This document shows, in pieces, positions 17,926-56,406 of a DNA stretch of 64,000 bases. The first letter of the stretch is position 1. The number at the start of each line of letters is the position of its first letter. The stretch is from Dehalococcoidia bacterium. GTDB lineage: Bacteria; Chloroflexota; Dehalococcoidia; Lucifugimonadales; VXLM01. Location: contig OZ244816.1 in assembly GCA_965220255.1 (NCBI GenBank), positions 369,124 through 433,123 of the forward strand, in the 5' to 3' direction. The notes beneath the pieces were generated by a model. The model saw only the letters and a list, made by a program, of their open reading frames with translations, was not told the DNA's origin and made no database searches. Both the position numbers and the translations under genes were made by a program.

Positions 17926-20019
17926 CTACTCCAGCTTGAGGGCACGGATGCGGTGTCCGTATTGCTCGGAGATGAGGAGGATGTCCTCGCCGTAGAAGGT
18001 GAGGCCGAACGGGGTGTTAAGTCCCGTCTCAGCGTAGGGGCCCTCTGAACCGGCTACCGTTTCGATGGTGCCGCCGGAAGTCACGCGCCGGACGAGGTGG
18101 TTGGCCGAGTCGGTGAAGTAGACGGTACCGTCGGAAGAGACCGCGACACCCTGCGGGCCATCGAGACTGGCCTCGGCGGCCAGTGTGCCGTCAGGCGAGA
18201 AGCCCTGCTCGCCGGAACCGACAATCGTGGTGATTATGCCGTCGATGTCCACCCGGCGGATGACGTGGCAGTTGTGGTCGACAAAGTACATGTTGCCAGC
18301 CGTGTCGAAGGTGACCGAGGATACGCCGCTGATCTGGGCCTCCTTGGCTGGCCCGCCGTCGCAGGAGTATCCGGGGATCCCCGTGCCCACGACGGTGGCG
18401 ATGATGCCGGTCTGTGCGTCGACCCTGCGAATGCGGCCCACGCCTGTGTCGGCGATGTAGAGGTTGTCGTCGGCATCGTGGGCGACGGACGAGACATTGA
18501 CAAGGTTAGCGTTGAGGGCCGGCCCGCCGTCACCCTTGTCCCACTGGAACGCCGCGCCGGCAACGTTGTGGATTATGCCGTCCGAGTCTACCCTGCGCAC
18601 GTGTCCGTGCCTGGTGTCGGCGATGACGACGGTGCCTTGAGAGTCGACCGAAACGTCGTTCGGGTTGCCGAGGTAGGCCTCGGTAGCGGGGCCGCCGTCC
18701 CCGCCGTAGGCGCGCGCTCCGTTTCCGGCGAAGGTGCGGATGATTCCCGTCGATGGATCGATGGCGCGTATCCGCTGGCTCCAGATGTCGGCGATGTAGA
18801 TTTGACCGTCGGGGCCGATGCTCATGCCGTCGGGGCCGCCAAGGTAGGCGTTTGTGGCCACTTCCCCGTCGTGGTTGGTGATGCCGCCGAGGAGGGTCGT
18901 GACGATGCCCGTCTCGCCGTCGATGCGGCGCGTGCGACCGCCGCAGTCTGAGTAGAAGACGGTGCCGTCGGGGTCGGCCCAGACGCCGACCTCGACGGAG
19001 TTGACCTCGGTCTCGGTGGCCTTGACGCCCTCCTCGCCCATGCCGGGGACGCCGGTTCCGGCGATGGTGGTGACGATGCCGGTCTCAGCATCAACCCTGC
19101 GGACGCGGAAGCCGTACTTCTCACCAACGTACAGGTTGCCGTGAACGTCTACGTTGATGGCGTCGGGCATGAGGGTGGATGCCTCGGTTGCAGGGCCACC
19201 ATCGCCGTTCGAGGCGCGCTGGCCGTTTCCGAGGACGGTGGTGACGATGCCGGTCTTCCCGTCGATCTTGCGGACGCGGTCGTTGGAGTTGTCGCATACG
19301 TAGAGGTCGCCCTCGGGGCCGAAGGCGAGATGTTCGGGGTGGTAGAATCCTGCGGCCTCCTTCGGTCCGCCGTCCCCGCTGTATCCGCCGAGGCTGAGGC
19401 CGGGACCGATATAAGGCCTGCTGTCGCCCATCTCGGAGGGGTGGTGCCGGGCCTCCTGTCCGGCGAAGAGCTCGATGATGCCGGTCTCGGCGTCGACACG
19501 GCTGATGTTATTCGTCCACTCGCTGGAGACGTAGATATCGCCGTTGTCGGCGACAGCGACGCCGCAGTGGGTATCCGTCTCGGCTTCGGTGGCGGGGCCG
19601 CCGTGGCCTCCGCGTCCCCTCTTGCCCGACCCGACGACGGTCTCGACGATGCCGGTCTCGGCGTCGATGCGGCGGTAGACGTAGTTGTTGATGTCGTTGA
19701 TGACGATGTTGCCGTGCACGTCCTGGGCGATGTCGTGCGGGGCGTAGAACTCCGCTTCGAGAGCGGGACCTCCGTCGCCGGAGTAGCCCGGGACGCCGGT
19801 ACCGGCAAAGCGATGAAGGATGCCGTCGTGGTCGATGCGCCAGACGACGTGCATGTGGTAGTCGTTGATGATGAGCTCGCCGGTCTTGTTCCAGCGCAGA
19901 ATGCCCATGGGCCAGCCGGCGTCGGCCTCATTGGCGGGGATTCCCTCCCGGATTCCCACGCCGGCGATGGTGACCAAGTCGCCGGGCTGCATGTCGTTGA
20001 AGAGTTTGGGGAGATTCAT
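17926..20019 (-). CDS. NHL-repeat beta-propeller protein, about 12 blades (paralogue B), no signal peptide seen
   Basis: 697 aa, collinear with paralogue A from N-terminus (..QPGDLVTIAG..) to C-terminus (..EQYGHRIRALKLE). Only 6 nt separate the two genes. Confidence 0.75.
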   Translation of the reverse strand: MNLPKLFNDMQPGDLVTIAGVGIREGIPANEADAGWPMGILRWNKTGELIINDYHMHVVWRIDHDGILHRFAGTGVPGYSGDGGPALEAEFYAPHDIAQDVHGNIVINDINNYVYRRIDAETGIVETVVGSGKRGRGGHGGPATEAETDTHCGVAVADNGDIYVSSEWTNNISRVDAETGIIELFAGQEARHHPSEMGDSRPYIGPGLSLGGYSGDGGPKEAAGFYHPEHLAFGPEGDLYVCDNSNDRVRKIDGKTGIVTTVLGNGQRASNGDGGPATEASTLMPDAINVDVHGNLYVGEKYGFRVRRVDAETGIVTTIAGTGVPGMGEEGVKATETEVNSVEVGVWADPDGTVFYSDCGGRTRRIDGETGIVTTLLGGITNHDGEVATNAYLGGPDGMSIGPDGQIYIADIWSQRIRAIDPSTGIIRTFAGNGARAYGGDGGPATEAYLGNPNDVSVDSQGTVVIADTRHGHVRRVDSDGIIHNVAGAAFQWDKGDGGPALNANLVNVSSVAHDADDNLYIADTGVGRIRRVDAQTGIIATVVGTGIPGYSCDGGPAKEAQISGVSSVTFDTAGNMYFVDHNCHVIRRVDIDGIITTIVGSGEQGFSPDGTLAAEASLDGPQGVAVSSDGTVYFTDSANHLVRRVTSGGTIETVAGSEGPYAETGLNTPFGLTFYGEDILLISEQYGHRIRALKLE

Positions 20020-30328: not shown

Positions 30329-30404
30329 TGGAGCCCTCAAGCAGACTCGAACTGCTGACCTCGTTCTTACCAAGAACGCGCTCTGCCTCCTGAGCTATGA
30401 GGGC
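30329..30404 (-). tRNA. tRNA-Thr (anticodon GGT), CCA encoded
   Basis: The reverse complement folds by hand as a cloverleaf: acceptor GCCCTCA/TGAGGGC, D stem GCTC/GAGC, anticodon stem CGTTC/GAACG with loop TTGGTAA, T arm AGCAG-TTCGAGT-CTGCT. Confidence 0.85.
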
Positions 30405-30440
30405 ACGCACCTTCCTTTCGGAACGGGCCTGACGGCGCTT

Positions 30441-30527
30441 TGGTGCAGGGAGTAGGATTCGAACCTACGTAGCCCTTAGGGCGCCAGATTTACAGTCTGG
30501 TGGATTTAACCACTCTCCCATCCCTGC
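30441..30527 (-). tRNA. tRNA-Tyr (anticodon GTA), class II with long variable arm, CCA encoded
   Basis: Acceptor GCAGGGA/TCCCTGC, anticodon stem CCAGA/TCTGG with loop CTGTAAA, variable stem GCCC/GGGC, T arm GTAGG-TTCGAAT-CCTAC, discriminator A. Confidence 0.85.
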
Positions 30528-30618
30528 ACGTAGCCGACAGCCGATTATTTTAGCACAAGCGGCATTTCCAATCCAAGACGCGCCTACTCGAAGCGTCGTC
30601 CCGGTTGGGTTAGGTGAA

Positions 30619-30692
30619 AGCCCCAGGGGGGACTCGAACCCTCCAACCTGCCGATTACAAATCGGCTGCGCTGCCGATTGCGCCACTGGGGC
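30619..30692 (-). tRNA. tRNA-Thr (anticodon TGT), CCA not encoded
   Basis: Acceptor GCCCCAG/CTGGGGC, D stem GCGC/GCGC, anticodon stem GCCGA/TCGGC with loop TTTGTAA, T loop TTCGAGT. My hand fold has one A.C mismatch in the T stem and a 6-nt variable loop. Confidence 0.8.
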
Positions 30693-30710
30693 CCGGCGGA
30701 TTGTTTCAAC

Positions 30711-36773: not shown

Positions 36774-38312
36774 ATGGATAGCGACTACGCCATCAGCTTG
36801 CAGGACGTGACGCTGGAGATTCCGGCGCGGCGCCGAATTCCGCATCGCGCAAGAAGGGGGACGAGCGCGTCCCAAGCTGCGCCTACGCAGATCGGTGGGA
36901 GGCTGAGCTTCGGTCGTGGATCCTCAACCACCGTCACGATCTTGGACGGCGTGAACATCGCCATTTCAAAGGGACAGCGCGTCGGTCTCATTGGGGCTAA
37001 CGGGGCCGGCAAGAGCACTCTCTTGAGGGTGATAGCAGGAATCTACCACCCTACACGCGGGGTTGCGGAGACCCGGGGAACGATATCCACCCTGTTCCCG
37101 GAACTCCTCGGCGTGCGACCTGACGCCACCGGGCTGGAGAACATTGTTCTCACCGGAGTCCTTCTTGGTCTGACGAAGAAGGAGATCAGTAGAAGGTTAC
37201 CGGAGATCATCGAGTTCACGGAGCTCGGCGATTACATCTACATGCCTATTCGGACGTACTCGACGGGAATGCGTACCCGGCTCGTGCTGTCGATAGCGAC
37301 GTGCATTCGCCCTGACATTCTCCTCGTTGACGAGGTGATCGGCGTCGGGGACAAGAGCTTTCGGCTCAAGGCCAAGGACCGTTTCAATGAGATGATGACC
37401 TCCGCGAATACTCTGATAGTCGTCTCACAGTCTCCCGAGATCATCCGCGAGTTCTGCACCGAGGCGATCTGGCTGGAGCGCGGCCAGGTGAGGAACATGG
37501 GGCAAGTGGACGACGTGCTGCGTGCGTATGCTGCCCATGCGGCAGGCACAAACGAGGGAATGGCCTCTGACTCCAAGACGCTGCTGGAGGCACGCGACAA
37601 CCTTGCCGGGGATGGGAACCTGAACTGGTCGCCGGACATACCAATCACAAGCTGGGATGGCGTCACGGTTGGGGGCAACCCAAGTCGGGTGACCCGGCTG
37701 ATTCTCCGCGAAAGCCAACTCAGGGGTTCAGTTCCGAAGGCGTTGGGGGATCTTGCGGAGCTTACTCACCTGGACCTTCGAAGCAATCAATTGAGCGGAG
37801 AGATTCCGTCGGGATTGGGACGACTTTCAAAATTGGTGATACTCGACCTCCATAGCAACAACTTGGAAGGTCCAATCCCTCCGGAATTGGGTAAACTCAC
37901 CGACCTGAAGGTCCTCAATCTACACAGCAACAGGTTGAGTGGCCCCATCACCAAGGAACTCAGTCAGATCACATCACTAGAAGGGCTATACCTTCACAAC
38001 AATCGATTGAGCGGTACAATACCGGTTGAGTTGGGCAATCTCAGGATTCTGGATAACCTGTGGCTCTCCACCAACCGGCTGAGCGGGGAAGTGCCCGCCG
38101 AGCTTGGCAATTTGACCGACCTTACCAAGCTCAGCCTCCACGGCAACCGGTTGAGTGGGACCATACCATCCGAGTTGGGAAACCTCGGCAAAAGCCTGCA
38201 GTTCTACCGCCTCAGCGGAAACAATTTCGTTGGGTGCATTCCGGCTGGGCTGGCAAACGTAGCTGACACGGACCAACACCAGCTCGGTCTGCAGGTATGC
38301 TCAGACAATTGA
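36774..38312 (+). CDS. wzt: Polysaccharide-export ABC ATPase (Wzt/TagH-like NBD) fused to a C-terminal plant-type leucine-rich-repeat domain
   Basis: 512 aa. Walker A GANGAGKST, YSTGMRTRL signature, Walker B ILLVDEVIGVGD. From aa 283 (nt 37620): LNWSPDIPITSWDGVTVGG..RVTRLIL cap, then eight 24-aa repeats L..L..L.L..N.LSG.IP..LG. Confidence 0.8.
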   Translation: MDSDYAISLQDVTLEIPARRRIPHRARRGTSASQAAPTQIGGRLSFGRGSSTTVTILDGVNIAISKGQRVGLIGANGAGKSTLLRVIAGIYHPTRGVAETRGTISTLFPELLGVRPDATGLENIVLTGVLLGLTKKEISRRLPEIIEFTELGDYIYMPIRTYSTGMRTRLVLSIATCIRPDILLVDEVIGVGDKSFRLKAKDRFNEMMTSANTLIVVSQSPEIIREFCTEAIWLERGQVRNMGQVDDVLRAYAAHAAGTNEGMASDSKTLLEARDNLAGDGNLNWSPDIPITSWDGVTVGGNPSRVTRLILRESQLRGSVPKALGDLAELTHLDLRSNQLSGEIPSGLGRLSKLVILDLHSNNLEGPIPPELGKLTDLKVLNLHSNRLSGPITKELSQITSLEGLYLHNNRLSGTIPVELGNLRILDNLWLSTNRLSGEVPAELGNLTDLTKLSLHGNRLSGTIPSELGNLGKSLQFYRLSGNNFVGCIPAGLANVADTDQHQLGLQVCSDN

Positions 38313-38334: not shown

Positions 38335-41133
38335 ATGGTAGAAACACATAAGCCCGAATCAATGGAACACACGCATGTGAGAGATCGTGTCTCCCAGGTG
38401 TACCTTGGCATCATGGACTGGGGTCCCATGGGCGACGTTCTCCGTCGTCGAGTCGACTGGATGGCTGAGCAGGCCCAGGGGCCCAGAGTGTTGGACGTGG
38501 GCTGCAGTGAGGGGATCCTGGAGGTGCTGCTCGCACGCCGTGGAATGGACGTTACGGGTGTGGAGGTGAACCCCGACGCCCTTGAATTCGCTTACGAACT
38601 GCTTGCCGAAGAGCCGGACGAGGTACGCAGCCGCGCGAAGCTGATTCAAGGGGACTTCATCTCCGAGCGGCCGGTAACCGGTCATTTCGACACCGTTGTC
38701 CTGGGCGAGATTCTCGAACATCTCCACGATCCCGGTCCGCTGCTGGAGCGGAGCCTGGAGCACTTGCGCCCGGGTGGGCTGCTCGTCATTACGACCCCCT
38801 TTGGACTGCATCCACACGAAGACCATCATCAGACCTTCTACCTTACGGACATGATCGACGCGCTCAAACCGAGGCTTGCACTTGAGCACATGAGCGTGGA
38901 GGACAGCTATATACGCTTCGTTGGCAGCATGTCGGAGAACTGCGAGGCTTCCTGGCAGTGGCTCGATGCCGAGGCGGTCTTATCCATGACACAGACGGCG
39001 CTCGTCGCCTCAGACGCCAAGCTGGACGAAATGCTGACGAAGCGAGAGGACCGGATCCAGGAACTCACACGCCAGAGGAACTATCTGAGAGATGAGAACC
39101 AGGACCTCAAGCGACAGGTCAGGTTCGACAAGATGGCATTGGGCCGGTTTAAAAGAAACCTCGATGCCAGGACGGGAGAAGTACGGGTACTCAGGCACCG
39201 ACTGCAGTCAGCATATTCGAGTACATCCTTCCTAACCGGAGCAGCATTGGTGCGCGCCGTCAAGCAGCCGCACACTCTGTGGAAGCTTCCGTTACAGATG
39301 TTGCGCCTTTATGGAGCCGCTTCCAAACCTTCGGCAGAACTCACCCCGGATGAAGACCTGGCCAAGCGATACAAGTACATTCCCAAGAGTCTGAATCTAG
39401 ACATCACGGAATTCCTCACCTACCCGCCCATGGACTTGCCTGAGGCAAAGTCGGACGGTCCGCCTGTTGCAGCCATTCTCGACACATTCACTGAGCACTC
39501 TCTGCGATATGAGGCAAATCTCCTGCTGTTGTCCCTCGAGAATTGGCGCGATCAATTGGAGAAGACCCCGCCCGCCTTCCTCTTTGTCGAGTCAGCCTTC
39601 AGCGGCAACAACCGTGAGTGGCGACACAAGATAGTCGGCTACGAGAACCTTGAGGACAATCCGCTCCGAGAGTTGCTGCAATACTGCCGTTCGAAGGGGA
39701 TCCCAACGGTATTCTGGAACAAGGAAGACCCTCCACACTTTGATGACTTTATCGGAGCCGCCAGAGAGTTCGACTACGTATTCACGTCCGATGAGCACTG
39801 TGTCCCGATATATCGCGAGACCTTGGGTCACGACAGGGTCTACGTAATGCCTTTCGCCGCACAGCCGCGGCTCCACAATCCGTCTCAGGAGGAAGGTTGG
39901 CCCAACTATCCCGTGTGCTTTCCGGGAAGCTGGCAGCAGCACAGATATCCTGAACGCGCGGAGGCGCTTCAAAACATGCTGGACCCTGCCCTACCGCTCG
40001 GCCTTCATATATTTGATCGTAATCTCACGCGAAGGGACTTGGGTCCGTACTATCGCTTCCCGGATCAATACAAGGAAGCGATCAAGGGTTACCTCACGTA
40101 CCAAGAAATGCTGACGGTGTACCGGTGTTACGACGTGCTCCTGAACGTGAACACCGTGAGCGACTCTCCAACGATGTTCTCACGCCGAGTCTTCGAGAGT
40201 CTCGCATGTGGGACTCCCGTGATCTCCTCGGAGTCGGTGGGCATGAGCCGGATGCTCGGAGAGCACGTCAGAGTAGCGCACAGCAAGGAAGATACGATAG
40301 ACCACCTGTTGGAACTGATGGGGGATGAAGAAGCACGTATTCGAGAAGGGCACAAAGCTTACCGCTTCGTGCATGAGAACCACACCTACCGGCACCGGAT
40401 GAATGAGGTATTCCGGAACATAGGAATGGAATCGCTCGTTACCGAACAGCCGTCGGTGAGCGTCCTTATGCCCACCATGCGTCCCGAAAACGTGCTTCGA
40501 TGCATCGAGAATTTCACAAAGCAGGAATATGGGAATAAGGAACTGATCCTCATCCTGAACAATGCGGAGTTCGATCTCGATGACGTCCGAAAGCACACCG
40601 CCGGTATTCCCAACATCCAGGTGCTTCATGTCGAGGGGCGCACGACCTTGGGAGACTGTCTAAACAGGGGAGTGGCGGCGGCATCCGGCAGCTACGTTGC
40701 CAAGATGGACGATGACGATCATTACGGAGAACGGTTCTTGTCTGACAGTATTCTCGCAGCCTCGTTTTCGGATGCCGAGGTCGTTGGGAAGGCATCGTTC
40801 TTCATGTATTTCGAGGACGCGGACACAACGGCCCTTGCTGAAGTTGCGCGTGAGCACACATTCACCCATTTCGTAACTGGCGGGACGATGTTCATACGGT
40901 CCGACGTTGCCGGAGAAATACCATTCGATCCGATTTCGCTGAGGGAAGATACGAACTTCTTGCACGCCGCGACACAGGCCGGATGCCGTATCTACGCCGC
41001 CGACCGGTTCAACTTCATTCGGGTGCGGACAGACGATGTGTCCAATCACGCGGATCCGACGCCAGACATGGAGTTCCTCAGAAGGTGCAGGGCGAAGACG
41101 CCCGGCCTTGACCTGGACCGCGTGATGATATGA
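38335..41133 (+). CDS. Multidomain glycan-assembly protein: class I SAM methyltransferase, coiled coil, CgeB-like (GT1-fold) glycosyltransferase, GT2 glycosyltransferase
   Basis: 932 aa. Methyltransferase motif I VLDVGCSEGILEVLLARRG (aa about 45-165). Heptad-rich charged segment aa about 222-295 (KLDEMLTKREDRIQELTRQRNYLRDENQDLKRQV...). CgeB-like block aa about 375-695 (IPTVFWNKEDPPHFD..., LNVN...SPTMFSRRVFESLACGTPVIS). GT2 block aa about 705-900 (SVLMPTMRPENV..., AKMDDDDHY). Confidence 0.75.
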   Translation: MVETHKPESMEHTHVRDRVSQVYLGIMDWGPMGDVLRRRVDWMAEQAQGPRVLDVGCSEGILEVLLARRGMDVTGVEVNPDALEFAYELLAEEPDEVRSRAKLIQGDFISERPVTGHFDTVVLGEILEHLHDPGPLLERSLEHLRPGGLLVITTPFGLHPHEDHHQTFYLTDMIDALKPRLALEHMSVEDSYIRFVGSMSENCEASWQWLDAEAVLSMTQTALVASDAKLDEMLTKREDRIQELTRQRNYLRDENQDLKRQVRFDKMALGRFKRNLDARTGEVRVLRHRLQSAYSSTSFLTGAALVRAVKQPHTLWKLPLQMLRLYGAASKPSAELTPDEDLAKRYKYIPKSLNLDITEFLTYPPMDLPEAKSDGPPVAAILDTFTEHSLRYEANLLLLSLENWRDQLEKTPPAFLFVESAFSGNNREWRHKIVGYENLEDNPLRELLQYCRSKGIPTVFWNKEDPPHFDDFIGAAREFDYVFTSDEHCVPIYRETLGHDRVYVMPFAAQPRLHNPSQEEGWPNYPVCFPGSWQQHRYPERAEALQNMLDPALPLGLHIFDRNLTRRDLGPYYRFPDQYKEAIKGYLTYQEMLTVYRCYDVLLNVNTVSDSPTMFSRRVFESLACGTPVISSESVGMSRMLGEHVRVAHSKEDTIDHLLELMGDEEARIREGHKAYRFVHENHTYRHRMNEVFRNIGMESLVTEQPSVSVLMPTMRPENVLRCIENFTKQEYGNKELILILNNAEFDLDDVRKHTAGIPNIQVLHVEGRTTLGDCLNRGVAAASGSYVAKMDDDDHYGERFLSDSILAASFSDAEVVGKASFFMYFEDADTTALAEVAREHTFTHFVTGGTMFIRSDVAGEIPFDPISLREDTNFLHAATQAGCRIYAADRFNFIRVRTDDVSNHADPTPDMEFLRRCRAKTPGLDLDRVMI

Positions 41134-42854
41134 CGAAGGCGTTGCTCGCCACGCTCATCGTCCTGGCGCTGGGATGTGGAGGGGCTGATCCGGCGTCAAT
41201 TCGAAAAACCGAGCCGGCGAATAACGACAAGGTAACGAACCAAACACCAACCGCCAATTCACAAGACCCGATTCGCCCTCCGGCAAGCTGGCAGGTTCAG
41301 GCCGATGGCGGGCCGAGAGTGACCGAACTGACCCTGGGCCGCAAGCCGGACGGTCCGTGGAAGTTTCAACCACGTTACGACGACCCGGAATGGGATGCCT
41401 CTCTCCCAACCGATTGGTCCGCCGATCCCTTCGAAGACCTCAATTGGCAGCATCATCTCCATTCCTGGCGCTCAATGGAGTTTTGGCTGAATGAATTTCT
41501 CCGAACCAACGATGCTGATCTTCTCCGGCATCCTATAGATATAGTCCTTGACTGGCATCGATTCCACATTGAGGAGGGCAGGGTCAGCCACCTTCAGTGG
41601 TACGATGACGCGACCGGAGTACGCGCATCTCGGCTGGCCTTTCTCCTCGAGTTCATTCTGGAGGACGAAATCGAGGTCAGCGATGACAACCTCGCTCGGC
41701 TCATGACCTTGGCTGACCTGCATGTCGAGAAGCTCATGGACCCGGAGTTTCTCAGTTCCAACAATCACGGCCTCTTCCAAATGGTGGGGCTTGATGCGCT
41801 ATGCTCCGTCACGGGTTGGAGAGAGGCTTGTCGTGGAGCCGGAGAATACGCAAGGGATTCGTTCGTTAGATTGATAGGGACCTGGTATACCGAGGAGGGA
41901 GTAAACGTAGAGAGTTCGCCAACGTACCACTACTGGGTCACAGAGAAGATTCGCGAGTTGGGGGCCTCTGAGCGCTTCCGGCACCCTGATGTGCAGGAGA
42001 TACTTGAGGAGGCCGACGAAGTCTCCCCCTGGCTGACATATCCGGACGGGAGGTGGGTCCGCGTGGGGGACAGCCATGGCGAAGGCCCAAAGTTGACCGG
42101 CTCCGTCCCGTCTACGTGTCTTCCGGAAGGCGGAGGCTGTTGGGCGGTTCGAGACCTGAGCAAATCGGGCTATGCGCTTGTTCGATCATTGCCGGAGGTC
42201 GAGGCAAGCCGGTCGAGCATGTTGTTCGTCGGCGGGACTACGGCTCCAACGGGACACAAGCACGCCGATGACCTCGGATTCGTACTCATAGAGGGTGGTC
42301 AAGATATCTTCATCGACAGTGGAAGGTACGGTTACAACTATGATGCGGCCCGTAATTACGTGTTGAGTGCGCGGGCGCACAACATACCGAGCCTCGTGGA
42401 TAGGCGAATCGATCCCTACGTTATCGATCCCGAGAAGTCGCATCTGGGACCGCTCAGGGTGGAGGAAGGTCAATTCACCATCAGTGGCGTCGTCGACAGA
42501 CCGTGGCTGCTCGTCCACGAGCGAAAGCTGTCGTACATTCCAGGAGTGATGCTCAGGATAGAGGACAAGCTGGACAACCGAACCGAGTCCCGGTGGCAGT
42601 CCAACCTGCATCTTGCGCCTAGACTCATTCCCGAAATTAGCGAGGCGGGTTTCGTTGTCACTGCCGGTGAATTGACCGTGCAGGCGGAGTTTAGCGGTGA
42701 GGGCTGCAGTATATCCGCAGCCCGGGGAGAGACCGACCCATACCAGGGTTGGGTGTCGGTCGGATACTTGGAGCTTGCCCCGGCTTCGGTTGTCGTCGCG
42801 ACCTGTCCCGCCGACTTGGTAGAGAGCTCATGGCACATCACGTTCGAGCGCTGA
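41130..42854 (+). CDS. Secreted (possible lipoprotein) heparinase II/III-like / alginate-lyase-like protein
   Basis: 574 aa. Signal LLATLIVLALGCGG. C-terminal GHKHADDLGFVLIEGGQDIFIDSGRYGYNYD...ARAHN is typical of Hepar_II_III. The ATG overlaps the upstream stop (ATGA). Confidence 0.65.
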   Translation: MTKALLATLIVLALGCGGADPASIRKTEPANNDKVTNQTPTANSQDPIRPPASWQVQADGGPRVTELTLGRKPDGPWKFQPRYDDPEWDASLPTDWSADPFEDLNWQHHLHSWRSMEFWLNEFLRTNDADLLRHPIDIVLDWHRFHIEEGRVSHLQWYDDATGVRASRLAFLLEFILEDEIEVSDDNLARLMTLADLHVEKLMDPEFLSSNNHGLFQMVGLDALCSVTGWREACRGAGEYARDSFVRLIGTWYTEEGVNVESSPTYHYWVTEKIRELGASERFRHPDVQEILEEADEVSPWLTYPDGRWVRVGDSHGEGPKLTGSVPSTCLPEGGGCWAVRDLSKSGYALVRSLPEVEASRSSMLFVGGTTAPTGHKHADDLGFVLIEGGQDIFIDSGRYGYNYDAARNYVLSARAHNIPSLVDRRIDPYVIDPEKSHLGPLRVEEGQFTISGVVDRPWLLVHERKLSYIPGVMLRIEDKLDNRTESRWQSNLHLAPRLIPEISEAGFVVTAGELTVQAEFSGEGCSISAARGETDPYQGWVSVGYLELAPASVVVATCPADLVESSWHITFER

Positions 42855-42925: not shown

Positions 42926-44041
42926 ATGCGCATATTGTCAGTCGTTGGGACACGTCCCGAAGCTGTGAAGATGGCAATGGTGGCGCGCACCCTCGCAGCA
43001 GCCGAGGGAATCGAGCATGAGCTGTGTGTCACAGCGCAGCATCGGGAAATGCTGGACTCGGTGCTGCGGCTGTTCGAGCTTGAACCTGACTATGACCTGA
43101 ATGTGATGACCCCTGGGCAGGACCTCACGGACGTCACAGGTGCGGTCTTGACCGGAATGCGAGACGTGCTCTCGGAGGTCAAGCCCGATCGAGTTCTCGT
43201 TCAGGGCGACACGACAACGGTCTTGGCAACCGCATTGGCCGCGTTCTACGCTAAGATTCCCGTCGGGCACGTGGAGGCAGGCCTGAGGACAGGCGACATG
43301 TCGGCCCCCTGGCCTGAGGAGATGAACCGTAGGCTGGCCGACGCACTCAGCGACCGCCACTACGCACCCACTGAGACGGCTCGCAAGAGACTACTGGAGG
43401 AAGGCCTGCCGGATTCCGGGATCGTGGTGACCGGCAATACGGTGATAGACGCGCTCCTGCACATCGTTGACCATCTGAAAAGCGACCCGGAGCTTGAACG
43501 TGAGGCGGAGGAACGCCTGCCCACACGGGACCGCGCGCATAAGCTCATTCTTGTTACCGGCCACAGACGTGAGAGCTTCGGCGTGGGCTTCGAGCAGATC
43601 TGCAGGGCAATCGCCCAGATTAGCAGACGAGACGACGTGGAGATAGTGTATCCGGTGCATCTGAATCCGAGAGTGCGTGAACCTGTGTTCCGCCATCTGG
43701 CCGATCTTCCCAATGTTCATCTGATAGAACCGCTAGACTATTTGGCATTCGTGCATCTGATGAATGAGGCGCACCTGATCGTGACGGACTCCGGAGGAAT
43801 TCAAGAGGAGGCCCCCTCGCTGGGGAAACCCGTGCTTGTGATGCGCGATACGACAGAGCGGCCGGAGGCAATTGCCGCAGGGACGGTGAAGTTGGTGGGT
43901 ACGGACGCTCAACGCATCACCTCGGAAGTTTCGCGGCTGTTGGATGAACCTGGCGTTTACACATCCATGGCGCGAATACACCATCCCTACGGCGACGGGC
44001 GAGCCAGTGAACGGATACTCAAGGACTTGACGGGTGGTTAA
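42926..44041 (+). CDS. wecB: UDP-N-acetylglucosamine 2-epimerase (non-hydrolysing)
   Basis: 371 aa. [17 protein letters not shown]..., [44 protein letters not shown]. Confidence 0.9.
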
Positions 44042-45290
44042 GGGCTTGGAGCGAGTTTGTGTGGTGGGTCTCGGCTATGTGGGACTGCCTACCGCGGCGG
44101 TCTTGGCAAGTCGTGGAGTCGACGTGATCGGAGTCGATATCGACGGCGACCGCGTCGATGAGATCAATTCAGGACGGTCTCCATTTGAAGAGCCGGGTCT
44201 AGACTCCCTTGTCGATGGTTCAGTGGCAAACGGGACTCTGACAGCGCGCACCAATCCTGTCCCGGCCGATGCGTTTGTCGTGGCAGTTCCGACCCCTGTC
44301 AGGGAGGACCGGAGCCCTGATGTCAGCTATGTGCGCGCGGCGGTCGAAAGTGTGGCACCCACTCTGCGGAAGGGCAACCTCGTGGTCGTGGAGTCGACGT
44401 GTCCCGTCGGGACGACGGAGAAGGTCTGCGAGTGGCTGGCGACGGCGCGACCTGACCTGACGTTCCCTCACACCGTAGGCGAGACGAGCGACATCCGTGT
44501 GGCATACTGCGCCGAGCGCATTCTGCCGGGGAACGCCTTGAAAGAGCTGATCGAGAACGATCGTGTCATCGGCGGAGTGAGTTCGTCATGCGCGGAGGCG
44601 GCGAAGCGGCTGTACGAAACGTTCGTCGAAGGGGTCTGCAGGGTTACGGACGTGCGCACGGCCGAACTGTCGAAGCTTACCGAGAACGCCTTCCGAGACG
44701 TCAATATTGCGTTCGCCAACGAGATGTCGATGGTCTGCGAGGCCCTGGGCATTGATCCATGGGAGATGATAGCGCTGGCAAACAGGCATCCCAGGGTTGA
44801 TATCCTCAACCCAGGACCCGGCGTCGGGGGACACTGCATACCGGTTGACCCCTGGTTCATCGCCAGCGCTGCGCCCGACCTCACGCCTATGATCCAAACC
44901 GCGCGACGGGTAAACGATGAAATGCCGAAGGTAATCGCGGACAGGGTGATTGCCGAGTGTGAAGGTCTTGGCAGTCCCATTGTCGTGTGCCTGGGACTGG
45001 CCTATAAGGCGGATGCGTCAGACATGCGGGAGAGTCCGTCCATTGAAGTCGTCAAACAATTGCAGGGGAATCTCAGGGGAAGACTACTGGTCGTCGAGCC
45101 GTTTGTTTCCGAGCTGCCTCAGGAGCTGCGAGGCGACGGGAAGACCGTGCTGGTCGGACTTGACGAAGGGATTGCGGAAGCGGACGTAGTGGTGCTGCTC
45201 ACGAATCACAGCGCCTTTTCGGACATAGACAGAGAGCTGCTTTCGTCGAAGGTGGTGGACTCGCGTGGACTTTGGAAGCGCATCGGCTGA
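44034..45290 (+). CDS. wecC: UDP-N-acetyl-D-mannosamine dehydrogenase (UDP-ManNAcA-forming)
   Basis: 418 aa, GTG start overlapping wecB by 8 nt. [12 protein letters not shown] Rossmann, catalytic-Cys context [28 protein letters not shown]. Confidence 0.85.
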
Positions 45291-45347: not shown

Positions 45348-46592
45348 ATGAAAATTCTCGTACTCACCCAGAACTTTCCGCCTGAGGTTGGAGCAACTGC
45401 CGCCCGCCTGCACAGAATGACGAAGAGTCTGGCCGAGCGGGGGCACCAAGTCACCGTCATCACGGCAATGCCGAACTACCCAACCGGACGGGTCTTCGAC
45501 GGATATCGCGGCAAGGTCAGGTCTGTTGAGGAGACCGATGGCGTCAGAGTAGTCCGTACGTGGTCGTTTCCGTCCAAGTCATCGAACTCACTCCTGAGAT
45601 TGATAGGCTACGCATCGTTCGCGCTGTCAAGTCTCCTGCTGGGAATGAGGGGCCTTGGACGTCAGGATATCGTCCTCTTCGACACTCCTCCCCTACCACT
45701 TGTTCCCACCGGACTTGTATTGGGACGTGTTACCGGCGCCCGGGTGGTCATGAACGTCTCCGATATCTGGCCTGAGATGGCAGTGCAGCTGGGATATCAA
45801 GTAGGAAGGCTCTCGATGTGGGCGCTGAAACGGCTGGAGCGTCTCGGCTACGAGAAGTCGGATGTCGTTACAACGACTACAAGTGCGGCCAAAGAGAAGA
45901 TCAGCCGGCGATTTCCCCATGTTCGCACTGCGGTTATCAGCAACGGCACAGACCTTAGGATGTTCAACCCTTCGCTCAGGAACCAAGAAGTCCGTGATTC
46001 GCTGGACGCTCAGGCGGAAGACTTTCTGGTCGGCTACATCGGCCTGCACGGACTGTTTCAGGGCCTGGAGGTCGTCGTGGAGGCGGCAGACAGGCTACGC
46101 GGGCACAAGGCGATCAAGTTCGTCATGATCGGAGACGGCCCCCGTAAAGATGCGCTCAGAGACCTCGCAGAGCGCAAGAACCTCGACAATCTTCAATTCC
46201 TTGACCTCGTGGACAGGGAGAGAATTCCTTCGATACTCGCCTCGTGTGATGCGGCACTTGTCCCGCTTGCGGCGGAGTTTCCCAGTACGATTCCCTCGAA
46301 GGTCTATGAGATTATGGCATCGGGAGTGCCGGTGGTTATCAGCACGGGTTGCGAGGGCGCCGGAATAGTGGAAGAAGGCAAGGCGGGGCTGACATTTCGT
46401 CCGGGTAATGCCATAGAACTTGCGGAGGCCCTAACTTATCTGGAGGCAAACAAGGAAGAGACTGCTCTCATGAGAAAGAATTGTCGAAAACTCGCCTCCC
46501 ATTTCGACTATGACCGAATTGCCGAGCAGACCGAGTCTTTCCTGCTGGCGATCGCGAACGGGACAGCCAGTCCCTTGAATAAGGGAAAGTAA
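45348..46592 (+). CDS. GT4-family glycosyltransferase (WcaI/WbuB-like)
   Basis: 414 aa. MKILVLTQNFPPEVGATAARL...; C-terminal E-x7-E-like context PSKVYEIMASGVPVV. Confidence 0.8.
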   Translation: MKILVLTQNFPPEVGATAARLHRMTKSLAERGHQVTVITAMPNYPTGRVFDGYRGKVRSVEETDGVRVVRTWSFPSKSSNSLLRLIGYASFALSSLLLGMRGLGRQDIVLFDTPPLPLVPTGLVLGRVTGARVVMNVSDIWPEMAVQLGYQVGRLSMWALKRLERLGYEKSDVVTTTTSAAKEKISRRFPHVRTAVISNGTDLRMFNPSLRNQEVRDSLDAQAEDFLVGYIGLHGLFQGLEVVVEAADRLRGHKAIKFVMIGDGPRKDALRDLAERKNLDNLQFLDLVDRERIPSILASCDAALVPLAAEFPSTIPSKVYEIMASGVPVVISTGCEGAGIVEEGKAGLTFRPGNAIELAEALTYLEANKEETALMRKNCRKLASHFDYDRIAEQTESFLLAIANGTASPLNKGK

Positions 46593-53555: not shown

Positions 53556-53887
53556 CACAGGGGTGGAGTGTTCGCCTCAACAACTCTGAACACTTACGAC
53601 GTGGATGTTAAGGCATGATGATCCCTGCAGGCTTGAGACGATATGGGATTCCTAGCGGGAATGGAAAGTGGGATCCGGCCTCCGCCGGAATGCCGTGGGG
53701 CTCTTCGGCGAAATGACCGAGGCAGTAGGATCAGGGAGGCTTTCGCGGTCGTGACAAGTGCTGAGACAGAGGGGGGCGTATACTGGAACGTTGATTGACT
53801 TATCTTCCTATAAATGCTAAAAGTGAGGGAACGCAATTCGAACCGGCAACAAAGTGCGGAAATGAGATTCTCAATTCTGAGAGGAGA

Positions 53888-56338
53888 ATGACTATGCGAC
53901 GAACACTCTTGAATATGGGAGGGTTTGCGGCCCTGGTGGTTATCGTCACCATGGTTGGGGCCCTCGCGTGCGAGTCGTCGGAAGAGCCGGCACAGCCCAT
54001 ACCGGCAGCAAGGGCTGCTCCCGCGGCTCCTGCTGCAGATCCTGCCCCTGCCCAGGAATACGAAACTATGGCGCCGCAGGCGCAGCAGCAGCCGGCTCCT
54101 GCCGCACCTGCCAGGTCGGCAGACCAGCCTGACGCGCCGGTGAGTGCGGGAGTCGGTGCTGTTGTCGCTACGGCTCCGGGGCGTGAGGGCGAGGACCCAG
54201 CCGACGCGATGGCTAGCTTCGAGTACATGGCGCCGAAGCTGGAGCCGGGCGGCTATCCGTCTCATCAGTGGGACGGTCCGATTCCCACGAAATTCAGTGA
54301 GTCCCCGCAGTCGGCGGCGTTGGTCAGGTCGGGACAAATTCTTCCTGTGGAAGAGCGTCTGCCCGTGCACGAGGACATCTGGGTCATCGCGCCGTATGAC
54401 GAGATTGGCGTATACGGCGGAAACATGAGGATAACGACCCACCACGTCAAGACGCTGGACCACCTGGCGGTTACCAGCCTGGTTAATGGCGACCCGACGG
54501 GCACCAGCGAGCCTCGGCTCATCAAGGGCTGGGAAGTGAGCGATGACGGCAGGAAGTACACCTTCACGAACCGTCGGGGCGCTCGATGGTCGGACGGCTA
54601 CCCGATGACCATCGAGGACGTCAGGTTTGCAATGGAAGACCTGATGTACAACACTGAGCTCAACCCGAACCTGCCGGCCGAGTTGAAGTCGCAGATTACC
54701 GGAAACCCGGCGAGCTTCGCGGTCGTTGACGACGTGACCTGGACCATTGAGTTCGACGACCCGTACTACGACCTCGCAAGCTCCAGGCACATGTGGGGAT
54801 CGTCCAAGACACGAGGGTGCCCGCGCTGCTACTACGCTCCCTCGCACGTCTACAAGCGCTACCACCAAAAGTACAACCCTGACGAGATCGACGCCCTGAT
54901 GGCGCAGTACGAGCAGGAAAGCATCCGAGGCCTCCAGAACCGGATCGACAACATCCGCAACGGTCCCGGAAGTGACTGGCGGCAGACGGGACCGATACCG
55001 ACGGAGTTCGATCCGAACTTCATCTACAAGGGCGACATCTACACGCCGGCCATGTCCGAGCTGATCCAGACCCGGTGCTGTGAGGGTGGACGCGCAGCGG
55101 TGCGGAACCACTACTTCATGGGTGTAGACCCTGAGGGCAACCAGATGCCGTACATCGACGAGCAGATTCTCATCCTCACCGAGGACAGGACTGCCTCCGT
55201 CTTCCGCGCCATGAACGGCGAGAACGACTACTACGGCGGTTCGATGATCCTCAGCGAGCTGCCCCTCTACATGGCGAACATGGAGAAGGGCGACTACAGC
55301 GTCTACATCTTCCGCTCGCCGGCAGGAAACGACTCGGCGACAGCGGTACAGAACGAGTTCGTGCAGGACCCCGAAATGGGACAGCTCCTCCGCACGAAGG
55401 ACTTCCGCAAGGCGCTCTCGATAGCGACCGACCGGAACGAGATGAACGAAGTTGTGGCGAGCGGAATCGGCACTCCGCAGCAGTGGATCCCTCATGCGAG
55501 CACGCCGTACTTCCCGGGCAAGGAGTACGCCGACCTTGACGCCAGCATCGACCTCGACGGCGCCAAGGCAATCATGGCGAACCTGGGTTACTCGGACGCG
55601 AACGGCGACGGATACCTCGATCGCAAGGACGGGAGCGGACCGCTGTCGCTGCACTACATAGCCAGTTCCACCTACTTCCCTCACATCGAGATCCTGCAGG
55701 ACCACTGGGGCCAGTTGGGAATCAAGGTTGACATCGAGGAAGGCGGTTCCGGGGGAGTCCGGCAAGAAAACCCAACGCTCCCGTTCGAGCACCACATCTC
55801 GCTCTACTCGATGAACCAGTGGACCGTCCAATGGACCCGCGCCTTCGCAGGCACGAGCGGCAGTCCTCTCGGCGCCGCGATGGGCAACTACTGGGCATCG
55901 TTCGGTGAGCAGGGAATGGCCCCCACGGGCGGCGATCCGCTGTACACGGACGCCTACGGCAACCAAGCCCCGGTGGGCAACTACCCTGCTGACATCACCG
56001 GCAACATCATGAGGAAGCAGGACATCTGGCGGACGGGCATCCAGACCGGCCCGGTGCTCCATCCTGAGCGTGTCGAGATGGGCAAGGAGTTCTGGCGGAT
56101 CAGCGCCGAGGAGAAGTACAACATCGGCTACCTGGCCTTCATGGGCATCGTTCGCGGCATGACGATGAAGCGCAACAACCTCCGCAACGTGCCGAAGAAC
56201 CACGTGGCCCTCGAGGCGAAAGGTATCCTGGGCGCGTACTACTTCGAGGACGGTCTCGACAACATCAGCAATCCTGGCAACAGGTCGCAGAAGTACAAGA
56301 GCGTACACTTCCTCGATCCTGAGTACTGGACGCAATAG
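53888..56338 (+). CDS. ABC-transporter substrate-binding protein, family 5 (oligopeptide/nickel-type), lipoprotein-like, with Pro/Ala-rich tether
   Basis: ATG 53888 is preceded by GAGAGGAG. Signal FAALVVIVTMVGALAC, then about 60 aa of P/A/Q-rich linker, then SBP_bac_5-like blocks (KGWEVSDDGRKYTFTNRRGARWSDGYPMTIEDVRFA). Confidence 0.8.
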   Translation: MTMRRTLLNMGGFAALVVIVTMVGALACESSEEPAQPIPAARAAPAAPAADPAPAQEYETMAPQAQQQPAPAAPARSADQPDAPVSAGVGAVVATAPGREGEDPADAMASFEYMAPKLEPGGYPSHQWDGPIPTKFSESPQSAALVRSGQILPVEERLPVHEDIWVIAPYDEIGVYGGNMRITTHHVKTLDHLAVTSLVNGDPTGTSEPRLIKGWEVSDDGRKYTFTNRRGARWSDGYPMTIEDVRFAMEDLMYNTELNPNLPAELKSQITGNPASFAVVDDVTWTIEFDDPYYDLASSRHMWGSSKTRGCPRCYYAPSHVYKRYHQKYNPDEIDALMAQYEQESIRGLQNRIDNIRNGPGSDWRQTGPIPTEFDPNFIYKGDIYTPAMSELIQTRCCEGGRAAVRNHYFMGVDPEGNQMPYIDEQILILTEDRTASVFRAMNGENDYYGGSMILSELPLYMANMEKGDYSVYIFRSPAGNDSATAVQNEFVQDPEMGQLLRTKDFRKALSIATDRNEMNEVVASGIGTPQQWIPHASTPYFPGKEYADLDASIDLDGAKAIMANLGYSDANGDGYLDRKDGSGPLSLHYIASSTYFPHIEILQDHWGQLGIKVDIEEGGSGGVRQENPTLPFEHHISLYSMNQWTVQWTRAFAGTSGSPLGAAMGNYWASFGEQGMAPTGGDPLYTDAYGNQAPVGNYPADITGNIMRKQDIWRTGIQTGPVLHPERVEMGKEFWRISAEEKYNIGYLAFMGIVRGMTMKRNNLRNVPKNHVALEAKGILGAYYFEDGLDNISNPGNRSQKYKSVHFLDPEYWTQ

Positions 56339-56406
56339 ACCGACAGATTGAAACACACCATCCGTTCGCCCTCCGACAAGCGCGGGGTGAACGGATGGAA
56401 AAAGCC

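Follow-up and report, generated by a model that had tools for sequence, protein, structure and literature searches.

The window analysed here, a stretch of 64,000 nucleotides from contig OZ244816.1 of a Dehalococcoidia bacterium (Chloroflexota), contains a glycan gene cluster in which the nucleotide-binding domain (NBD) of a Wzt-type export ATPase is fused to a leucine-rich repeat (LRR) domain (Table 1). The fusion gene starts with an ATG at 36774 and the upstream permease ORF stops at 36770, which leaves the 3-nt gap reported in the first-pass annotation. Downstream, a gene encoding methyltransferase, coiled-coil and glycosyltransferase modules (MT-CC-GT) follows after 22 nt in every locus. 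Operon synteny is kept in about 20 loci, and the genes past 46592, encoding PrkA and a PolyA_pol-family nucleotidyltransferase, are unrelated. Rfam, promoter and terminator scans around the locus were uninformative. As judged from sequence matches, the exporter is almost certainly of the Wzm-Wzt ABC type for a lipid-linked cell-surface glycan. The UDP-GlcNAc 2-epimerase and the UDP-sugar dehydrogenase together predict an acidic ManNAcA-type sugar, and the exported polymer is likely to include ManNAc or ManNAcA and to be methyl-capped.

Table 1. Features of the Wzt-LRR locus, with positions in the window; residue numbers refer to the fusion protein.
Feature	Position	Strand	Evidence and remarks
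Wzm-like ABC-2 permease, 273 aa	35949..36770	+	NCBIfam galactan export Wzm/RfbD NF050109, 7.1e-60; syntenic in all related loci
Wzt-LRR fusion gene	36774..38312	+	One ORF, 512 aa plus stop; full-length homologs known
Predicted Wzt/TagH-type NBD, residues 1-258	36774..37547	+	Pfam ABC_tran, NCBIfam Wzt/RfbE, PDB matches
LRR N-terminal cap, residues 262-305: helix, then LNWSPDIPITSWDGVTVGGNPSR	37557..37688	+	AF2 helix 261-277
Seven canonical 24-residue LRRs of the plant-specific class, residues 306-473	37689..38192	+	Regex register, Pfam LRR_1, AF2
Irregular eighth repeat and C-terminal cap, residues 474-512, with Cys488 and Cys509	38193..38309	+	NxF(T/V)GCIPxxL...L.LP.C motif
Methyltransferase–coiled coil–CgeB-like GT–GT2 protein (MT-CC-GT), 932 aa	38335..41133	+	Pfam, AF2
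Heparinase II/III-like protein, lipoprotein signal, extracytoplasmic	41130..42854	+	Pfam Hepar_II_III_C 2.9e-18; N-terminus MTKALLATLIVLALGC
UDP-GlcNAc 2-epimerase	42926..44041	+	Pfam Epimerase_2 4.6e-123
UDP-sugar 6-dehydrogenase (UDP-ManNAc/Glc dehydrogenase family)	44034..45290	+	Pfam UDPG_MGDP_dh N, central and C domains
GT4-family glycosyltransferase, last gene of the cluster	45348..46592	+	Pfam Glycos_transf_1, Glyco_trans_4_4

Translation of the fusion gene yields an uninterrupted protein, as first annotated, and the assignment of its N-terminal part to a Wzt/TagH/KpsT-type NBD was likewise borne out. Pfam ABC_tran matches residues 57-188 (1.4e-19), and NCBIfam ranks the Wzt/RfbE family of galactan export first (residues 31-255, 1.2e-71; 240.7 bits, which is under the equivalog cutoff of 400), followed by TagH (4.5e-51). 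All three motifs quoted previously can be read in the translation, namely the Walker A motif GANGAGKST, the signature YSTGMRTRL and the Walker B motif ILLVDEVIGVGD. Matches in the PDB comprise Mycobacterium abscessus Wzt (9qfx, 1e-58), TagH (9cfl, 9e-47), TarH (6jbh) and Aquifex aeolicus Wzt. The nearest sequences and structures are those of mycobacterial galactan Wzt/RfbE and of TagH/TarH from Staphylococcus aureus and Bacillus subtilis, which, B. subtilis TagH apart, stop after the NBD, whereas the fusion continues into the LRR. By its motifs and best matches, the ORF encodes a predicted Wzt/TagH-type NBD of ABC-transporter-dependent glycan export, but its catalytic H-loop His is replaced by Gln219 (S218-Q219-S220) where proteobacterial relatives have A-S-H. 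The same Gln occurs in a sister clade with a short Wzt that lacks the LRR.

In the C-terminal half, which includes the region 37620-38309 highlighted by the first-pass annotation (residues 283-512), Pfam identified LRR_1 (4.5e-24), LRR_8, LRR_4 and LRR_14 and no Wzt_C. A regular-expression register places seven exact 24-residue repeats at residues 306, 330, 354, 378, 402, 426 and 450, so that the eight repeats counted originally hold only if the irregular C-cap repeat is included. The family profile of the repeat (L1, L4, L6, N9, L11, G13, I15, P16, L19, G20, L22) fits LxxLxLxxNxL(t/s)GxIPxxLGxLxx, the consensus given in the literature for the plant-specific class with its repeats of 23-25 residues (PMC2946307). 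The best PDB sequence match is the ectodomain of the plant LRR receptor kinase GSO1 (phmmer, 2.9e-136), the best fold matches are MIK2, FLS2, PSKR and PGIP, and the plant-class assignment made earlier stands. Foldseek searches with the LRR part returned LRR ectodomains only and no beta-sandwich fold, and AF2 folds residues 306-500 into an LRR solenoid (pLDDT >90). A DNA-level tandem repeat was not found, and the repeats are therefore old rather than recently amplified.

Both ends of the solenoid are capped. The N-cap (LNWSPDIPITSWDGVTV...RVTRLIL) is free of Cys and had been likened to the plant LRRNT_2 cap. It shares with that type only the W..W.GV...RV..L.L pattern and the preceding helix, and Pfam LRRNT_2 did not score against it even at E<=10; of the Pfam profile predicted for this protein, ABC_tran, LRR_8, LRR_4 and the absence of Wzt_C were recovered, but not LRRNT_2. 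In the phmmer alignment, residues 265-490 pair with GSO1 from its residue 12 onwards. The same N-cap is found in free LRR proteins, with up to 16 copies in giant ones, and the C-cap motif is common to secreted homologs, its two Cys being retained in 54 of the 65 fusions. The statement that typical bacterial LRRs span 20-22 residues proved too simple, as these bacteria encode many 24-residue plant-class cassettes that have the same caps at both ends, most of them preceded by a signal peptide.

Past its NBD, B. subtilis TagH has a transmembrane segment and then an extracellular domain. In the Wzt-LRR fusion no transmembrane segment was found; the highest 19-residue Kyte-Doolittle mean is only 1.48 and lies within the NBD. 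A hydrophobic segment that could serve as signal peptide or anchor is also absent, unlike in the secreted LRR proteins of sponge symbionts. With no transmembrane segment between NBD and LRR, the solenoid is almost certainly cytoplasmic, as proposed initially, and predicted to be suspended beneath the transporter. In the AF2 model, the NBD part of which is poor, the LRR starts about three residues past the last NBD helix.

The fusion is genuine and conserved. Full-length homologs form >60 protein clusters, and the same operon is present in 12 independent Dehalococcoidia MAGs that include complete chromosomes and sponge-derived bins from Aplysina (APA_bin) and Ircinia (SB0661). Although the window is a single sequence, the probability that a chimeric join, a missed stop or a frameshift separates NBD and LRR is negligible, since the frame is unbroken in these 12 assemblies (63-90% identity; several are complete long-read chromosomes), the junction is conserved and in frame in the alignment of homologs, and a query spanning the junction (residues 150-305) found an end-to-end match among 1.84 billion representatives. 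That match was the only one and belonged to the same family, and the query thus revealed no Wzt-LRR fusion elsewhere, other cap types being outside its reach. The only NBD-only close relatives of the fusion derive from frameshifted low-coverage contigs. Two such apparent LRR-less variants within the fusion clade (P0075 and P0084) were discarded because the LRR coding sequence survives in other frames; frameshifts break neighbouring genes on these contigs too. Genuine truncations of the LRR were absent from the >60 clusters. NCBI names the homologs merely 'ATP-binding cassette domain-containing protein', and a literature search returned no Wzt-LRR fusion. In line with the original remark that none was known to be characterised, this fusion has so far gone undescribed.

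Evolution is faster in the LRR than in the NBD. The dN/dS values are 0.04-0.23 for the LRR and 0.03-0.10 for the NBD. Whole repeats are gained or lost at one site, giving 7-11 repeats among homologs, and repeat number is unstable even inside one 90% cluster. Variable positions on the concave face are better conserved than those on the convex face (0.90 vs 1.34 bits), and this conservation is repeat-specific. Near-invariant concave residues are D334, N382, H408, W430, S432 and R479, and H456 also belongs to the conserved strip. The low dN/dS and the concave conservation indicate that the LRR is under purifying selection and functional.

In a sister Dehalococcoidia clade, the same MT-CC-GT operon contains a short Wzt that ends directly after the NBD, and the nearest proteobacterial Wzt proteins are short as well. 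As these nearest relatives are all short, the LRR is almost certainly a single lineage-specific addition to a short Wzt in sponge-associated Dehalococcoidia, and the earlier suggestion that it replaces a cap reader does not hold in this lineage. We considered whether the sister-clade operons encode a carbohydrate-binding module (CBM) or LRR separately, but what the gaps contain is a separate methyltransferase that ends in a helical tail. The closest relatives of the fused LRR are not plant proteins; they are secreted or membrane-anchored N-cap–LRR–C-cap cassettes of the same bacteria. Many of the LRR-only homologs have a signal peptide or anchor, including free membrane-anchored LRR genes that adjoin the operon at three loci (L014, L017 and L028). 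These operon-adjacent LRRs were considered as a possible source of the fused LRR, but its identity to them, at 42-48%, does not exceed that to unlinked LRR proteins, which reaches 54%. LRR genes have been reported from sponge SAR202 and Caldilineae (Bayer et al. 2018, PMC6306507). The eukaryotic-like LRR proteins of sponge symbionts share host lineage and cassette family with the fusion and have a proposed role in acting on the host once secreted (PMC6306507), whereas the fused LRR lacks a signal peptide and is joined to a cytoplasmic ATPase within a glycan operon. Its composition differs as well: His occupies repeat position 7 in 42% of fused repeats compared with <9% in secreted homologs, Arg occupies position 10 in 66% compared with 16%, and fused LRRs are less acidic. 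These differences point to a surface that was remodelled after capture.

MT-CC-GT contains the Pfam domains Methyltransf_23 (37-159), Glyco_trans_1_2 (570-692) and GT2 (709-817), and one of its two GT modules is CgeB-like (DUF3880 plus Glyco_trans_1_2). [quoted passage not shown] A methyltransferase domain at about residues 37-160, the long helix and two GT modules form a chain-terminator-on-ruler layout with predicted activity, and MT-CC-GT is presumed from its domains to be a terminator-ruler-polymerase. This layout resembles that of Klebsiella pneumoniae O7 ORF6 and O12 WbbB and of Escherichia coli O9a WbdD (PMC11231755, PMC3482155), but MT-CC-GT differs in lacking a kinase module and in its CgeB-like GT, and no sequence relationship to these proteins was detected beyond generic methyltransferase and GT2 domains. 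The best 120 matches listed for MT-CC-GT all fall within the same Dehalococcoidia group. Among 13 loci, LRR number showed no correlation with the number of MT-CC-GT copies or with whether a heparinase gene is present. When proteins are paired by contigs of equal length, there is a loose trend for 10-repeat Wzt proteins to accompany longer MT-CC-GT proteins, which is confounded by phylogeny.

The fusion can be compared with the Wzt proteins of E. coli O9a, K. pneumoniae O12/R. terrigena and A. aeolicus WzmWzt, which bear a carbohydrate-binding domain (CBD; PMC9445017). Common to both are a Wzt NBD adjoining a Wzm permease, an extra cytoplasmic domain fused straight to the NBD C-terminus (with binding predicted in the fusion) and an operon encoding a terminator on a coiled-coil ruler, predicted in the case of the fusion. 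The CBD is a dimeric jelly-roll beta-sandwich, whereas the fusion has an LRR solenoid, no detectable Wzt_C and an ancestry in which the LRR joined a short-Wzt lineage. The fused LRR occupies the site at which capped-O-antigen Wzt proteins bear their CBD. Compared with the ectodomains of plant LRR receptor kinases and PGIP, the fusion shares the 24-residue consensus repeats and the W..W.GV N-cap pattern, but it is bacterial and cytoplasmic, its N-cap has no Cys pairs and its C-cap is the one seen in the bacterial cassettes.

The LRR probably helps the exporter to recognise either its cargo or a partner enzyme. We tentatively favour, at somewhat less than an even chance, a role as cytoplasmic recogniser of the finished glycan. 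The concave face of LRRs 4-8 would bind the finished polymer either at the methylated non-reducing end or along the acidic backbone, through the strip N382–H408–W430–S432–H456–R479 and the Arg stripe at repeat position 10, and would thereby raise the local concentration of completed undecaprenyl-linked chains at the cytoplasmic entrance of Wzm-Wzt. The relation between the LRR and the Wzt CBD would then be one of analogy rather than homology. Trp, His, Arg and Asn are usual sugar-contact residues. In A. aeolicus, the methyl cap is read by Trp362 and His350 of the Wzt CBD (PMC9445017), and terminator-ruler-polymerase layouts elsewhere are always paired with a cap-reading module on Wzt (PMC11231755). 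PGIP provides a precedent for acidic-polysaccharide binding by a plant-class LRR, in which four clustered Arg/Lys bind the polyuronide pectin (Spadoni 2006, as cited in PMC4367531). Other C-terminal modules of related Wzt proteins are Wzt_C, F5/8 type C (discoidin) and Golvesin_C, of which the first two belong to Pfam families that are usually regarded as carbohydrate-binding. Against glycan recognition, most characterised LRRs bind proteins or peptides rather than glycans, and the sister-clade operon, with the same terminator, has neither CBM nor LRR and a Wzt without reader domain in cis, so that a cap reader is not obligatory for the pathway. W430, in the penultimate repeat, also occurs in free extracytoplasmic LRR relatives and may for this reason be structural or ancestral and not specific to a cytoplasmic ligand.

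A close rival, possible though on the unlikely side, is that the LRR is a docking adaptor that binds MT-CC-GT, the presumed polymerase-terminator, or another pathway protein, tethering synthesis to the exporter for direct hand-over. LRRs are chiefly scaffolds for protein-protein interaction, and related Wzt NBDs are fused to an APH-family kinase, an FkbM methyltransferase or a heparinase II/III domain; read as Rosetta-stone fusions with terminator- or modifier-type enzymes, these suggest that Wzt and such enzymes act side by side. The invariable proximity of the MT-CC-GT gene suits docking too, as does the sister clade, where the pathway runs without a glycan reader and an LRR would be an optional coupling device. 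However, MT-CC-GT varies among LRR-bearing loci in copy number (one or two) and domain content (the MT domain is missing from the first copy at L009 and L010) while the LRR does not change in step, a clade-specific docking element in MT-CC-GT was not identified, and a concave strip rich in His, Arg and Trp is atypical for a hydrophobic protein interface. Distinctly less probable is a regulatory domain that would adjust ATPase activity in response to a regulator or metabolite bound in the cytoplasm, recognising neither cargo nor polymerase. C-terminal regulatory domains are common on ABC NBDs, those of MalK, MetN and ModC being the obvious comparison, and both the short distance between NBD and LRR and the H-loop substitution, a hint of a modified catalytic cycle, could be accommodated. 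Since the LRR-less sister clade has the same Gln, this substitution is not linked to the LRR; furthermore, no candidate regulator is encoded nearby and the searches made found no precedent for an LRR in such a role. That the LRR is a tolerated passenger, a secreted cassette fused by accident and persisting with little or no function, is very improbable: these genomes contain very large numbers of highly mobile LRR cassettes (L020, L021 and L029), the domain evolves at a higher rate than the NBD with unstable repeat number and one or both cap Cys are gone in 11/65 fusions, but its dN/dS, the lack of genuine truncations, the repeat-specific concave conservation and the systematic His/Arg enrichment relative to secreted relatives all argue otherwise.

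To our knowledge, the beta-sandwich CBD is the only characterised accessory domain on Wzt in ABC-transporter-dependent glycan assembly. The fusion family indicates that a wholly different binding-type scaffold can sit at the same position. Together with the kinase, methyltransferase, heparinase-like, discoidin and Golvesin_C fusions of its NBD relatives, it makes the Wzt C-terminus look like an under-explored hotspot of domain innovation. The sister clade, in which the same operon encodes a short Wzt, represents a natural control for what an accessory domain adds to export, and opens possible roles in quality control, coupling to synthesis or regulation to comparison. It is doubtful, but would be of particular interest, that the LRR is a true carbohydrate reader which gates an ABC polysaccharide exporter, independent of the jelly-roll CBD and derived from a captured extracellular cassette. 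If so, it would be the first LRR shown to gate such an exporter through cytoplasmic recognition of a finished methyl-capped or acidic glycan, and changes in repeat number (7-11) would tune specificity or reach. The fusion is a rare instance of a plant-class LRR inside the bacterial cytoplasm, and suggests that sponge symbionts co-opt their expanded 'eukaryotic-like' repeats for housekeeping functions of the cell envelope, beyond host manipulation.

Wzt-LRR, the ATPase subunit of a Wzm-Wzt glycan exporter, belongs, judged by motifs, similarity and genomic context, to the Wzt/TagH NBD family. A gap of 3 nt separates its gene from the preceding 273-aa ORF, which is of the Wzm/RfbD permease family (NCBIfam, 7e-60). 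Residues 57-188 match ABC_tran (Pfam) and residues 31-255 the Wzt/RfbE galactan-export ATPase family (NCBIfam, 1.2e-71; TagH second), and the best solved relatives of the NBD by sequence are mycobacterial Wzt, TagH/TarH and A. aeolicus Wzt. The H-loop 'switch' His is replaced by Gln (S-Q-S, residues 218-220), which is invariant across the fusion family and shared with a sister clade of Dehalococcoidia that has the same operon and a short Wzt; proteobacterial relatives have A-S-H. The Gln may alter the ATPase cycle in Dehalococcoidia Wzt proteins.

The C-terminal half contains seven LRRs of exactly 24 residues (starts 306, 330, 354, 378, 402, 426 and 450), followed by an irregular cap repeat (residues 474-512) carrying Cys488 and Cys509. 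Pfam assigns LRR_1 (4.5e-24), LRR_8, LRR_4 and LRR_14 to this half, and no Wzt_C was found in the 512-aa protein. The repeats agree with the plant-specific consensus LxxLxLxxNxL(t/s)GxIPxxLGxLxx (PMC2946307), and among solved structures residues 265-494 are closest in sequence to plant LRR-RK ectodomains, namely GSO1 (2.9e-136), then FLS2, MIK2, PEPR1 and BRI1. The cap ahead of the first repeat shows a W..W.GV...RV..L.L pattern without Cys and is not scored by the LRRNT_2 profile. Judged by repeat consensus, the LRR thus belongs to the plant-specific class, yet lacks the Cys-bearing LRRNT_2 cap. The AF2 model is poor for the NBD and exceeds pLDDT 90 for the LRR, and Foldseek retrieved plant LRR-RK ectodomains for the LRR and Wzt/TagH-type structures for the NBD, with no match to a beta-sandwich fold. 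No 19-residue window anywhere in the protein is sufficiently hydrophobic for a TM helix, which places the LRR on the NBD side, i.e. in the cytoplasm. Since the defining CBD is absent, Wzt-LRR falls outside the CBD-bearing Wzt group. The ORF, Pfam, NCBIfam, AF2 and Foldseek results bear out the first-pass annotation, which had described a Wzt-type ATPase with a 24-residue plant-class LRR and no TM helix, 3 nt after Wzm; the AlphaFold and Foldseek check that it proposed agreed, and its Pfam forecast held for ABC_tran, LRR_8, LRR_4 and the missing Wzt_C, but not for LRRNT_2.

The fusion is real, and an artefact is exceedingly improbable. Matches over the full length of the query, with an identical Pfam set, come from more than 60 protein clusters (62-88% identity), and 12 Dehalococcoidia or Chloroflexota MAG loci, several of them on complete chromosomes, encode the fusion as a single collinear frame. 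No DNA-level tandem repeat was found in the region. Two apparently NBD-only close relatives were rejected as LRR-less forms; both lie on low-coverage frameshifted contigs where the LRR coding sequence persists and neighbouring genes are broken too. A junction-spanning query against 1.84 billion representatives matched end to end only one, from the same family. Among cluster members, MYB49885.1 alone bears an accession and a name ('ATP-binding cassette domain-containing protein'). None of the papers in the library searched connects Wzt, or a polysaccharide-export NBD, with an LRR. At least two carriers are sponge-derived, APA_bin (Aplysina aerophoba) and SB0661 (Ircinia ramosa), and 'eukaryotic-like' LRR genes are known from sponge-associated SAR202 and Caldilineae (PMC6306507).

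In an NJ tree of NBDs, all LRR-bearing proteins form one clade. Its sister clade (56-60% identity) shares the operon, including the MT-coiled-coil-GT genes, and has Wzt proteins ending at 254-262 residues; the next relatives (Legionellaceae, Burkholderiales) have a short Wzt as well. The LRR was thus gained once, onto a short Wzt, and displaced no CBM in this lineage, contrary to the earlier proposal that it replaces a cap-reading module. The cassette of N-cap, LRRs and two-Cys C-cap is common to hundreds of LRR-only proteins of these bacteria, most with signal peptides or anchors. Giant proteins of 1,200-3,250 aa (P0121-P0142) consist of strings of complete cassettes, with 4-16 N-caps each. 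Three LRR-less sister loci encode a small plant-class LRR protein (about 260-290 aa) divergently beside a gene for a 446-aa polytopic membrane protein without Pfam match, followed by Wzm and short Wzt. This LRR protein has a conserved N-terminal TM anchor and is predicted by the positive-inside rule to expose its LRR extracellularly; unlinked homologs resemble the fused LRR in sequence at least as closely as it does. It is possible that LRR cassettes are functionally tied to the glycan pathway from the opposite membrane side at these loci. Other long NBD relatives carry a C-terminal APH-family kinase, Golvesin_C, FkbM methyltransferase, heparinase II/III, F5/8 type C or Wzt_C domain (P0189, P0198, P0202, P0204, P0250, P0226). 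The C-terminus of Wzt proteins is a general hotspot for fusions, the LRR being one further outcome, and it appears far more varied than the characterised CBD would suggest.

The closely packed operon encodes Wzm, Wzt-LRR, a 932-aa methyltransferase/GT/GT protein, a heparinase II/III-like lipoprotein, UDP-GlcNAc 2-epimerase, UDP-sugar dehydrogenase and GT4, an order kept in all related loci, some of which carry the 932-aa gene in two paralogous copies. A simple terminator scan found none from Wzm-Wzt through the start of the 932-aa gene. The product probably includes an acidic ManNAcA-type sugar. AF2 models the methyltransferase domain of the 932-aa protein well, followed by a single helix (212-294). 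Among its aligned homologs, the segment between methyltransferase and GT modules measures 86, 93, 100, 107, 114, 121, 128 or 135 residues, and these mostly 7-residue steps are as expected for a coiled coil. This heptad-indel signature would fit a tunable chain-length ruler made of a coiled coil, in a terminator–molecular-ruler–polymerase layout like that of WbdD, WbbB and K. pneumoniae O7 ORF6. The earlier expectation of a CBM on this Wzt is therefore grounded in the paradigm. Some sister-clade operons contain an extra stand-alone methyltransferase, whose helical amphipathic C-terminal tail resembles the post-coiled-coil segment of the 932-aa protein and which resembles a WbdD-like free terminator. 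The lipoprotein signal of the heparinase-like protein suggests an extracellular action on the polymer; in P0204 (893 aa, another lineage), the same heparinase domain pair is fused straight onto a Wzt NBD.

The exporter carries a cytoplasmic LRR about 3 residues past the last NBD helix, with a conserved, remodelled concave patch. At variable positions of 22 same-length orthologs, the concave face is better conserved than the convex (0.90 vs 1.34 bits). Near-invariant in 48 family members are D334, N382, H408, W430, S432 and R479, and repeat position 10 is mostly Arg in repeats 4-7. Compared with secreted homologs, fused LRRs are less acidic and enriched in His at repeat position 7 (42% vs <9%) and Arg at position 10 (66% vs 16%). 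We tentatively propose, with confidence somewhat short of even, that this patch would bind the finished polymer and recruit it to the transporter, analogous to the Wzt CBD. Precedents support this reading: Trp and His act on the methyl cap in the A. aeolicus CBD pocket (PMC9445017), and PGIP, a plant-class LRR, binds polyuronide via clustered Arg/Lys (Spadoni 2006, cited in PMC4367531). Docking of the 932-aa polymerase-terminator is a close rival, though rather unlikely, and is favoured by the general tendency of LRRs to bind proteins, the enzyme fusions of related Wzt proteins and a sister clade that manages without a reader. A regulatory domain is distinctly less probable. The LRR evolves at dN/dS 0.04-0.23 (NBD 0.03-0.10), and a tolerated passenger is very improbable. 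Repeat number changes in whole units and at one site only, following residue 371, leaving repeats 1-2 and 4-8 untouched, and one 90%-identity cluster holds both 560-aa and 584-aa forms. Of 65 fusions, 11 have lost one or both cap cysteines, from which we infer a relaxed disulfide need in the cytoplasm.

Coordinates of features in the window and in related operon loci (L0xx)
Feature	Location	Strand	Remarks
Wzt-LRR ORF	36774-38312	+	uninterrupted, 512 aa
H-loop S-Q-S	37425-37433		within Wzt-LRR
932-aa protein gene	38335-41133	+
Heparinase II/III-like gene	41130-42854		in operon; lipoprotein signal (MTKALLATLIVLALGC)
Tandem ORFs, about 700 aa	15787-17919; 17926-20019	-; -	NHL-repeat-rich (Teneurin NHL domain, 2.5e-56 and 6.5e-52)
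Three-tRNA cluster	30329-30693	-	Thr-GGT, Tyr-GTA, Thr-TGT (ARAGORN); two of three in Rfam
920-aa ORF	53594-56356	-	no Pfam match at E<=0.001; overlapped by opposite-strand 847-aa ORF
Small LRR gene	L014 6661-7452; L017 6388-7242; L028 5307-6128	-; -; -
Stand-alone methyltransferase	L015 16478-17521; L018 16645-17724; L019 about 16630-17703

The NHL repeats constitute a further repeat family in the window besides the LRR. Wzt-LRR would surprise glycan-export specialists, with the LRR-less sister clade as a built-in natural control, and is one among several unexplored C-terminal fusions of Wzt.
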